A stretch of 64,000 nucleotides of DNA from Alloiococcus sp. Its GTDB lineage: Bacteria; Bacillota; Bacilli; Lactobacillales; Carnobacteriaceae_A. A program made the position numbers and the translations under genes. Positions within the stretch are counted from its first letter, which is position 1, and each line of letters opens with the position of its first letter. The notes under the pieces were generated by a model. It searched no databases and was not told the DNA's origin. It was given only the letters and a program-made list of their open reading frames with translations. The stretch spans positions 54,053 through 118,052 of the forward strand of contig DATGUS010000072.1 in NCBI GenBank assembly GCA_035301245.1, read 5' to 3'. Below are positions 4,895 through 51,433 of this stretch, piece by piece.

Positions 4895-5126
4895 ATAAAA
4901 AAAGACTTCATCCAAAGGACGAAATCTTCGTGGTACCACCTTAATTTGAGATGGTGAGCAAAGCCTGCTTCCATCTCCTTAAATTTCTTAACGCGAAATG
5001 AAACGATTATGGTTACATATTCACCATAATAATAAAGTGGATGATATCTAGTCTTATATAGTTATCAATCTCTCACCATTCATTGACTCGCTTAAACCAT
5101 TGACAAAACTAAACGTGTTCCACCTA
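4895..5126 (-). ncRNA. T-box riboswitch, Ile (AUC specifier)
   Basis: T-box AAGGTGGTACCACG at 4929-4942; AGCGA and GGTGAGA Stem I motifs; specifier AUC at 5043-5045; terminator with U-tract near 4895-4928. Confidence 0.92.
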
Positions 5127-5147
5127 TTTATATTGTTTAATTTTAAA

Positions 5148-48087: not shown

Positions 48088-48316
48088 AAAAAAGTCCCAT
48101 CAACTAAAACATCTGTTTAGTTAATGGGACGACAATAGCGTGGTTCCACCCAATGTTTATACAAAAAATCGTATACTCATTTGTCTTTAACGCAGACTTA
48201 CGTAAACTTTAATCAGCTTGTCTCAAAAGTGGTCATTAATACTTTGTTTAGAAAAGTCTCAGCACTCTTTTCCTCTCTTTGGAAACTTTAAAATATTAAT
48301 GGTATCTTTATCATTG
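48088..48316 (-). ncRNA. T-box riboswitch, Thr (ACC specifier)
   Basis: T-box GGGTGGAACCACG at 48139-48151; AGAGA and GCTGAGA motifs; specifier ACC at 48231-48233; GTCCCAT...ATGGGAC terminator. Confidence 0.92.
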
Positions 48317-48374
48317 ATTTAGTATATTAACTATTTACAACATAGATTACCAAATTTTTAATGATTAATCAATA

Positions 48375-51039: not shown

Positions 51040-51113
51040 TTTTATTTCCTCCTATTATTCATAAACATTTACCAAATACCTTTTTCGATCCCCCAATCCC
51101 CCTTAAATTATTC

Positions 51114-51156
51114 AATAAAAAAACATCCATCTAGGTTAAAAACCTAAATGGATGTT
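51114..51156 (-). terminator. Attenuator terminator upstream of the ABC operon
   Basis: AACAUCCAUUUAGGUU/AACCUAGAUGGAUGUU stem followed by a U-tract. Confidence 0.85.
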
Positions 51157-51294
51157 ATAAAATATACTATTCATATATAAGAATAGCCACTTAGGTTTTG
51201 ACCTATGTGGCTTCCATGCGAAAAATCTTTAGCCATCATAGATACAAGTCAGATTATTTCTGATTACTTGTACCCATAATGTATGAATACAAGT
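51114..51294 (-). promoter_or_regulatory. Leader-peptide transcription attenuator (alternative hairpins)
   Basis: Mutually exclusive pairings traced by hand; see the top finding. Confidence 0.75.
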
Positions 51295-51363
51295 TTATCT
51301 AAAGTAGCTAAAGTAAAATGAATTATTTAGTTTGGATAAATTTAATAAACCTATCGATAACAT
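51295..51363 (-). CDS. Phe/Tyr-rich leader peptide MLSIGLLNLSKLNNSFYFSYFR (22 aa; not in the ORF track)
   Basis: TAGGAGAG SD, ATG at 51363, TAA at 51295-51297; five of the last seven codons are Phe/Tyr. Confidence 0.8.
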   Translation of the reverse strand: MLSIGLLNLSKLNNSFYFSYFR

Positions 51364-51404
51364 TTTTCGCTCTCCTAAAATCATAAGATAATTGATTGAT
51401 TTCT

Positions 51405-51433
51405 ATGTTAGGTTACTCTTATAAAAATGTCAA
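51405..51433 (-). promoter_or_regulatory. SigA promoter of the leader/ABC operon
   Basis: TTGACA(51433-51428)-17-TAACAT(51410-51405). Confidence 0.75.

Follow-up and report, generated by a model that had tools for sequence, protein, structure and literature searches.

A predicted Phe/Tyr leader-peptide attenuator in front of an aromatic amino-acid importer in Alloiococcus

The leader and the genes behind it

We analysed a 64,000-nucleotide (nt) stretch of Alloiococcus DNA, referred to here as the window, and concentrated on a leader on its minus strand that lies downstream of dnaI and precedes a three-gene ATP-binding cassette (ABC) importer. Judging from its sequence and that of its relatives, the leader is very probably a ribosome-mediated (leader-peptide) transcription attenuator that senses charged tRNA-Phe and tRNA-Tyr and controls the uptake of aromatic amino acids. 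The RNA had been taken as unannotated in a first-pass annotation of the window; it matches a catalogued family, with 51135-51311 (minus strand) scoring 94.6 bits against RF02863 (Enterococcus sRNA_2410; cut-off 61) over model positions 1-196. A second Rfam family, RF04312 (the trpB motif), matched 51175-51280 (minus strand) under its cut-off (37.5 bits, E = 0.0017, cut-off 59); both hairpins of that model align, the second without a U-tract here. All leader features were checked on the minus strand and are listed in the direction of transcription. Letters a to h denote RNA segments, and a:d denotes the helix between a and d.

51433-51405, minus strand: sigma-70-type promoter, TTGACA (51433-51428), 17-nt spacer and TAACAT (51410-51405), 10/12 consensus positions
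51377-51370, minus strand: Shine-Dalgarno (SD) sequence UAGGAGAG (including AGGAG), 8 nt before the ATG (51363) of an upstream open reading frame (uORF)
51363-51295, minus strand: the uORF, MLSIGLLNLSKLNNSFYFSYFR, 22 codons and TAA; putative sensed codons F16 Y17 F18 (S19) Y20 F21
51311-51296, minus strand: segment a, UUAGCUACUUUAGAUA, with the final F/Y codons, the Arg codon and the stop; its partner is the 3' part of d; outer stem of the RF02863 model
51294-51282, minus strand: segment b, 5' arm of the b:c hairpin, immediately 3' of the stop codon
51280-51266, minus strand: segment c, partner b or d; c:d is P1 of the trpB motif
51263-51249, minus strand: P1b, a small variable hairpin within the c:d / a:d loop, poorly aligned among homologs (44.6% paired)
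51248-51229, minus strand: segment d, CUUGUAUCUAUGAUGGCUAA, a three-way switch strand with partners a, c or e
51212-51185, minus strand: relay hairpin B, made of segments e (51212-51201) and f (51199-51185); aligns to the trpB-motif terminator hairpin, without a U-tract here
51156-51115, minus strand: intrinsic terminator, made of g (51156-51139, 5' arm and loop), h (51137-51122) and the U-tract (51121-51115)
51039-50062, minus strand: gene 1, lipoprotein substrate-binding protein (SBP), PF04392 (TrpX/CD0873 family), E = 1e-77
50062-49175, minus strand: gene 2, ABC permease, PF02653
49175-48375, minus strand: gene 3, ATPase, PF00005

Promoter, SD, 22-codon ORF and terminator were all found on the minus strand where the first-pass annotation had placed them. 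Transcription from the promoter at 51433-51405 would give a leader of ~280 nt, with ~190 nt between the sensed codons and the U-tract. The terminator stem (51156-51122) comprises 16 pairs followed by TTTTT, and the importer genes begin 75 nt after it; segment g also pairs with f, as an antiterminator. Most homologs have a TTGACA-like -35 hexamer at a comparable distance, as judged by eye. A further in-frame ATG at 51382-51384 (minus strand), 21 nt upstream of the SD-served ATG, would give a 29-codon extension (MILGERK...); it is probably not used because it has no SD and is only ~14 nt from the likely transcript start. Pairing of the uORF start region GCGAAAAAU (51362-51370) with AUUUUUCGC (51218-51226) in the d-e spacer (minus strand) appears in the minimum-energy fold and would hide the uORF start codon; the 34 homologs do not keep it and instead show a small local hairpin.

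The SBP encoded by gene 1 has the Tyr-binding CD0873 (6HNI) as its best PDB match (E = 6e-70), and carries Ser248 at the position of CD0873 Glu263 and Tyr264 at that of Tyr279. It belongs with the PF04392 aromatic amino-acid binders of the CD0873 / SP1069 / VC_1101 type, its ligand being predicted. Among the solved relatives CD0873 binds Tyr, VC_1101 Phe and SP1069 Trp, and the preference is set by two residues (PMC6816091).

Conserved leader peptides, helices and regulated genes

RF02863 matches turned up in 29/51 genomes from the family to which the window belongs and in 85/151 sampled from the order, many with two to four copies, and RF02863 and RF04312 each match more than half of the 151 sampled Lactobacillales genomes. 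At the level of sequence, comparison of these loci established the parts of the leader, how they are conserved and covary, and that the sensed codons agree with the regulated genes. Aligning upstream regions, as the first-pass annotation had proposed for its Phe/Tyr attenuator, recovered an SD- and ATG-started, F/Y-rich uORF in one frame in 62/63 F/Y-type loci (34/34 own-family, 28/29 order-wide), together with covarying stems; the uORF, its C-terminal F/Y cluster and the helix chain are kept in orthologous and paralogous leaders alike, in line with that annotation. The in-frame ATG has an SD-like motif before it in 34/34 and 28/29 F/Y leaders, and the other two frames of the same loci contain no such ORF.

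The F/Y-type uORF has 17-27 codons and ends in [FY][FY][FY]-[SG]-[FY][FY]-R, followed by the stop or by three further codons and the stop. Distances from ATG to motif fall into seven length classes within the family, all of them multiples of 3. Across the whole family, F/Y residues account for 11 of 390 positions in the peptide heads versus 188 of 331 in the tails, and the N-terminal parts vary freely. The tails are of the FFFSFF class, the YYYGYY or YYYSYY class, or the mixed FYFSYF class to which the window belongs. Phe-type and Tyr-type leaders sometimes occur in tandem, each before its own SBP gene. In genome G042, a 3-kb region (contig C94:3227-6188) contains three tandem leaders of the family, every one followed by a PF04392 gene of its own, and a fourth is on another contig; it looks as if separate Phe- and Tyr-type sensors governed an array of paralogous binding proteins. 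A Q/K-L-N-[NHT] motif (51333-51322 in the window) directly before the sensed codons is common to Trp-, Phe- and Tyr-type peptides across families, and no pairing partner was found for it; an Arg follows the sensed codons in both the W and the F/Y classes.

The leader's fold is far more stable than that of shuffled sequence (51110-51400, minus strand: -88.1 kcal/mol, z = -7.6; 0/200 shuffles fold as well). We aligned 34 homologous leaders with MAFFT (alignment A1) and counted pairs for three alternative structures, with the following outcome for the individual helices.

a:d, segment a (51311-51296) with 51244-51229: 94.5% and 95.1% of cells paired (A1)
b:c: 83.5% of cells paired; 7/13 pairs changed on both sides
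c:d: 93.4% of cells paired
d:e: 90.1% of cells paired
e:f: 86.2% of cells paired
f:g: 91.7% of cells paired
g:h: 88.7% of cells paired; 11/16 pairs changed on both sides

The seven mutually exclusive helices are thereby 84-95% paired, compared with 34-43% in slid controls. Between 4 and 11 pairs per helix changed on both sides, values that none of 500 shuffles attained. Four of these helices (b:c, c:d, d:e and f:g; 83.5-93.4% paired) correspond to the pairings traced by hand in the first-pass annotation, which are hence kept in the 34 leaders.

The trpB-motif loci of the order contain a comparable peptide. An SD- and ATG-started uORF ending in W-Q-x-W-R-R was found in 27 of 30 RF04312 loci, just upstream of the boundary of the RF04312 model. 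W-type peptides end in ..QLNNAWQSWRRSLYR (e.g. QLNNAWQSWRR) and F/Y-type peptides in ..QLNNFYFSYFRYGL (e.g. QLNNFYFSYFR). As their counterparts do in F/Y leaders, the second Trp codon and the Arg codons of W leaders form a duplex with P1's right shoulder (median -15.9 kcal/mol, z = -3.1). We read the trpB motif as the Trp counterpart of the F/Y leaders. The window's own genome has such a W-type leader outside the window (contig C56:6400-6800; L061:1400-1800, minus strand), with a TTGACA promoter, an SD and the uORF MLLTRRLQLNNRWQSRIDAVS, in which there is a single Trp codon; this leader scores 50.9 bits against the trpB motif, has two tandem terminator-like hairpins and is followed by a second PF04392 gene that encodes Gln at the Trp-selectivity position. 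Many Trp-type leaders (L031-L060, e.g. L037, L039 and L048) show another strong terminator-like hairpin 5-40 nt beyond the first. In C56 the first hairpin can pair through its 3' arm (AUGCGGUU) with the second hairpin's 5' arm (AACCGUGU), which suggests an f:g relay like that of the window, except that each hairpin has a U-tract.

The codon classes agree with the genes behind the leaders. At the Tyr279/Gln284 position Tyr was found in 26/26 SBPs behind F/Y leaders and Gln, the residue of the Trp-binding SP1069, in 26/26 SBPs behind W leaders, including that of the C56 locus. The Glu263 position is occupied by Ala or Phe in SBPs that follow Phe-only leaders (10/10) and by Ser in those that follow Tyr-containing leaders (15/16). 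F/Y leaders precede PF04392 binding proteins, SBP_bac_3 transporters and 3-deoxy-D-arabino-heptulosonate 7-phosphate (DAHP) synthase; the last is Pfam-confirmed in locus L019, where it carries a ferredoxin-like domain, and DAHP-synthase-like genes in L071 and L089 were recognised by eye from N-terminal sequence, without a Pfam search. Shikimate-dehydrogenase-like genes lie behind F/Y leaders in several families (N-terminal sequence by eye only), and W leaders precede trpB-like genes (N-terminal sequence only) and PF04392 proteins. In L023, L028 and L029, leaders encoding NFFFSYFR or NFYFSYFR stand before SBP_bac_3 (PF00497) genes rather than PF04392 genes, and one SBP_bac_3-linked F/Y leader was found in the only other species of the window's genus. 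Since F/Y leaders precede both PF00497 and PF04392 genes, the leader is attached to unrelated transporter families.

Proposed switching and competing explanations

The leader has a uORF with its own SD and start, a cluster of cognate codons and an intrinsic terminator before the structural genes, all hallmarks of an attenuator; a further hallmark, an exclusive antiterminator dependent on ribosome position, was found in silico for cut transcripts only. In the mechanism that we propose, a:d, b:c, c:d, d:e, e:f, f:g and the terminator g:h would act as a chain of mutually exclusive helices. With no ribosome, or after its release, a:d and b:c would form, then hairpin B (e:f) and then the terminator, which would make OFF the default state. 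A ribosome at the stop codon would cover b, leaving c to pair with d, and hairpin B and the terminator would again follow (OFF). If the ribosome stalled on the first Phe/Tyr codons, it would cover a and leave b free, so that b:c would hold c; d would then capture e, the freed f would pair with g, and the blocked terminator would permit read-through into the importer genes (ON). The first-pass annotation had the same direction of switching but missed the conserved helix a:d, which would give the default OFF state.

We modelled this scheme under one footprint assumption, masking a 30-nt ribosome footprint in a transcript cut just before segment h. Without a ribosome, f:g had a probability of 0.06 in the window leader. 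With A-site codons 16-19, f:g rose to 0.47-0.86 and d:e to 0.51-0.94; with A-site codons 20-23, c:d was ~1.0 and f:g 0.03-0.04. Moving the footprint between codons 16-19 and the stop therefore flips the predicted fold of the cut transcript, as the first-pass annotation had anticipated. Among the 34 leaders, f:g exceeded 0.5 in 3 without a ribosome, in 18 at the best stall position and in 7 with the ribosome at the stop, where c:d formed in 34/34. Any pairing of g was tried as a measure and was noisy (8, 20 and 16 of 34); it was replaced by the specific f:g pairs. The folding predictions thus lend the scheme real but partial support, under that one footprint assumption.

Several points weigh against this mechanism. 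We infer uORF translation, stalling, the amino-acid response and the folding order, both here and in the homologs found. Stalls on Y20 and F21 give OFF under the footprint used, and in 16/34 homologs the cut transcript keeps c:d and e:f under it. In equilibrium folding of the full-length leader the antiterminator was never favoured, whatever was masked; the terminator state always wins at full length, and the decision must therefore be kinetic, as in classical attenuators. The switch model works only for transcripts cut before h and so rests on co-transcriptional kinetics. Transcription and translation are reported to be uncoupled in Bacillus subtilis (PMC11698733), and such uncoupling, if also valid here, would work against a ribosome-sensing mechanism. 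Conservation of the F/Y codons could be partly structural, because the last of them form one strand of helix a:d. In the SBP tree the split between W and F/Y is a single event and the contrast between Phe-only and Tyr-containing leaders recurs ~3 times; with so few independent lineages, the residue associations are consistent support and not strong statistics.

The best-surviving alternative, which we regard as improbable, is a ligand- or protein-binding leader whose c:d (P1) or a:d would be stabilised by an RNA-binding protein, an aromatic amino acid or a metabolite related to one, permitting termination, the uORF being incidental. SRC-39-1, as the trpB motif is also called, with >900 representatives, is one of ten untested "strong riboswitch candidates"; it is mostly found before an uncharacterised ABC transporter and has a terminator as expression platform, and its discoverers did not rule out a classic attenuator (Narunsky et al. 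2024, PMC11109978). That ranking, the strong structural covariation and the lack of an ON state in equilibrium folding alone would all suit a ligand. An incidental ORF, however, would not keep its SD, ATG, frame and class-specific aromatic run in 89/93 loci (F/Y and W) while its N-terminus drifts. A codon sensor would likewise be expected to exchange W, F and Y codons in step with the genes downstream, which a conserved ligand pocket would not, and the most conserved nucleotides are in stems and codons, not in junctions or loops. In the Rfam check called for in the first-pass annotation, the leader matched neither a T-box nor a riboswitch with a known ligand, and no regular (G/U)AG repeat array for a TRAP-like protein was seen by eye.

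It is highly improbable that the RNA acts primarily as a trans-acting small RNA (sRNA), the Rfam type of sRNA_2410, with its position before the importer being secondary. In the loci examined, the element occupies the 5' leader of genes for the uptake or biosynthesis of aromatic amino acids and is oriented as they are, many genomes have at least 2 copies, each before its own gene, and no target is known. RNA-seq of E. faecium revealed sRNA_2410, a discrete ~195-nt transcript with two Northern bands and no function assigned (Sinel et al. 2017, PMC5593968). Such a transcript might speak for an sRNA, yet a short terminated RNA is the expected product of an attenuator in the OFF state, and the two forms are as expected for terminated leaders. 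Terminated attenuator RNAs can act in trans in Sinorhizobium (rnTrpL; PMC6614838), and a trans role could coexist with attenuation.

A translated uORF whose control does not follow Phe/Tyr supply, through nascent-peptide arrest, general sensing of translation stress or a functional small peptide, is also very unlikely. The class-dependent change is confined to the aromatic run, in step with the regulated genes, while the rest of the peptide varies freely; what simple codon sensing does not explain is the conserved Q-L-N-[NHT] before the sensed codons and the Arg after them in the W and F/Y classes, a point in favour of this alternative.

A degenerate T-box sensing uncharged tRNA directly is effectively refuted: some streptococci (S. 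suis; PMC9382623) control TrpX-type importers through T-boxes and this genome does use T-boxes elsewhere, as the first-pass annotation had claimed (4912-5137, minus strand, 99 bits; thrS leader, 48122-48323, minus strand, 87.2 bits), but neither the leader nor 8 homologous loci matched RF00230 at E<=1, no specifier loop or T-box sequence is present, the nearby thrS leader provides the positive contrast, and the same annotation's statement that no T-box lies here holds. The thrS T-box scores just below the Rfam cut-off of 93, and a scan at the gathering threshold misses it.

Comparison with catalogued families and known attenuators

The leader and RF02863 are the same RNA family, as the full-model match indicates, and the outer stem drawn by Rfam is helix a:d. 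Rfam and the original paper treat sRNA_2410 as an sRNA gene of unknown role (PMC5593968). Unlike our description, the model starts within the uORF and omits the SD, the ATG and the N-terminal codons, and no link is made to translation, Phe/Tyr or the downstream genes. RF04312 has a homologous architecture, in which c:d takes the place of P1, d:e that of the antiterminator lying in P1's right shoulder and e:f that of the second hairpin, and it shares related leader peptides and downstream PF04392 ABC transporters. It differs in that it would sense Trp instead of Phe/Tyr, and in that e:f of the window lacks a U-tract and relays to a separate terminator; in print it is an orphan riboswitch candidate for which a classic attenuator is mentioned as not excluded (PMC11109978).

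We think it rather likely that sRNA_2410 and the trpB "riboswitch candidate" form one order-wide superfamily of ribosome-sensing attenuators. Their Trp, Phe or Tyr specificity would be re-tuned by swapping five or six codons together with compensating changes in d, giving the separate uptake and biosynthesis genes of each aromatic amino acid their own sensor, and the long seven-segment relay would buy time for the ribosome to arrive where transcription may outrun translation. Our literature search found no reading of sRNA_2410 or the trpB motif as leader-peptide attenuators, with subscription papers mostly outside the search and a prior description possible; nor did the searchable literature contain the unity of both families, the codon classes or the seven-segment relay architecture. 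A search for aromatic attenuators in Firmicutes returned none, the nearest cases being uORFC-13-1 before aroF in Acholeplasma (PMC8632094) and AroR of Corynebacterium glutamicum. The mechanism itself is textbook and AroR is the Phe-Tyr-Phe precedent, so that the first-pass claim of an undescribed device stands for the interpretation of this RNA and fails for the RNA, known as sRNA_2410 and a relative of the trpB motif, and for the mixed Phe/Tyr principle (PMC11802643).

If the superfamily holds, classical attenuators of a single family would stand behind two Rfam entries now filed as an "sRNA gene" and as an orphan "strong riboswitch candidate", with one candidate fewer among the riboswitches awaiting a ligand. 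Leader-peptide attenuation would then be common in Lactobacillales for the uptake and synthesis of aromatic amino acids, a control usually credited to T-boxes in these bacteria. The codon classes (W, F, Y and mixed) would predict substrates of PF04392 transporters, including those of paralogous binding proteins (for enterococci, a guess) and in other families of the order. The family would also offer a natural test of ribosome-sensed termination where transcription-translation coupling may be poor.

Among known attenuators, the leu/phe leader of Lactococcus lactis (RF01743) is reportedly a peptide leader; it shares its order, Lactobacillales, and the proposed leader-peptide mechanism with the window leader and exists in a Phe-codon version, and it belongs to a different family. 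Membership of RF01743 was considered and rejected: the leader and 8 homologs gave no match at E<=1, and among the genomes scanned the L. lactis control alone was hit, with 0/151 sampled genomes of the order. The enterobacterial trpL, pheL-pheA and pheM-pheST leaders, as summarised in PMC11802643, share the short uORF, the cognate codon cluster, the alternative helices and a default OFF state without translation. No sequence relation to the window leader was detected, and their segments 1-4 contrast with the seven segments, the three-partner strand d and the relay hairpin seen here; unlike them, window-type leaders would control uptake as well as biosynthesis genes. The closest parallel in peptide is AroR before aroF in C. 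glutamicum (Neshat et al. 2014, as summarised in PMC11802643), which belongs to a different phylum and was compared by description only. According to the same source, AroR responded to Phe, not Tyr, limitation. AroR attenuates an aromatic operon through a mixed Phe-Tyr-Phe peptide, and F/Y leaders of the window's family are likewise found before DAHP synthase genes.

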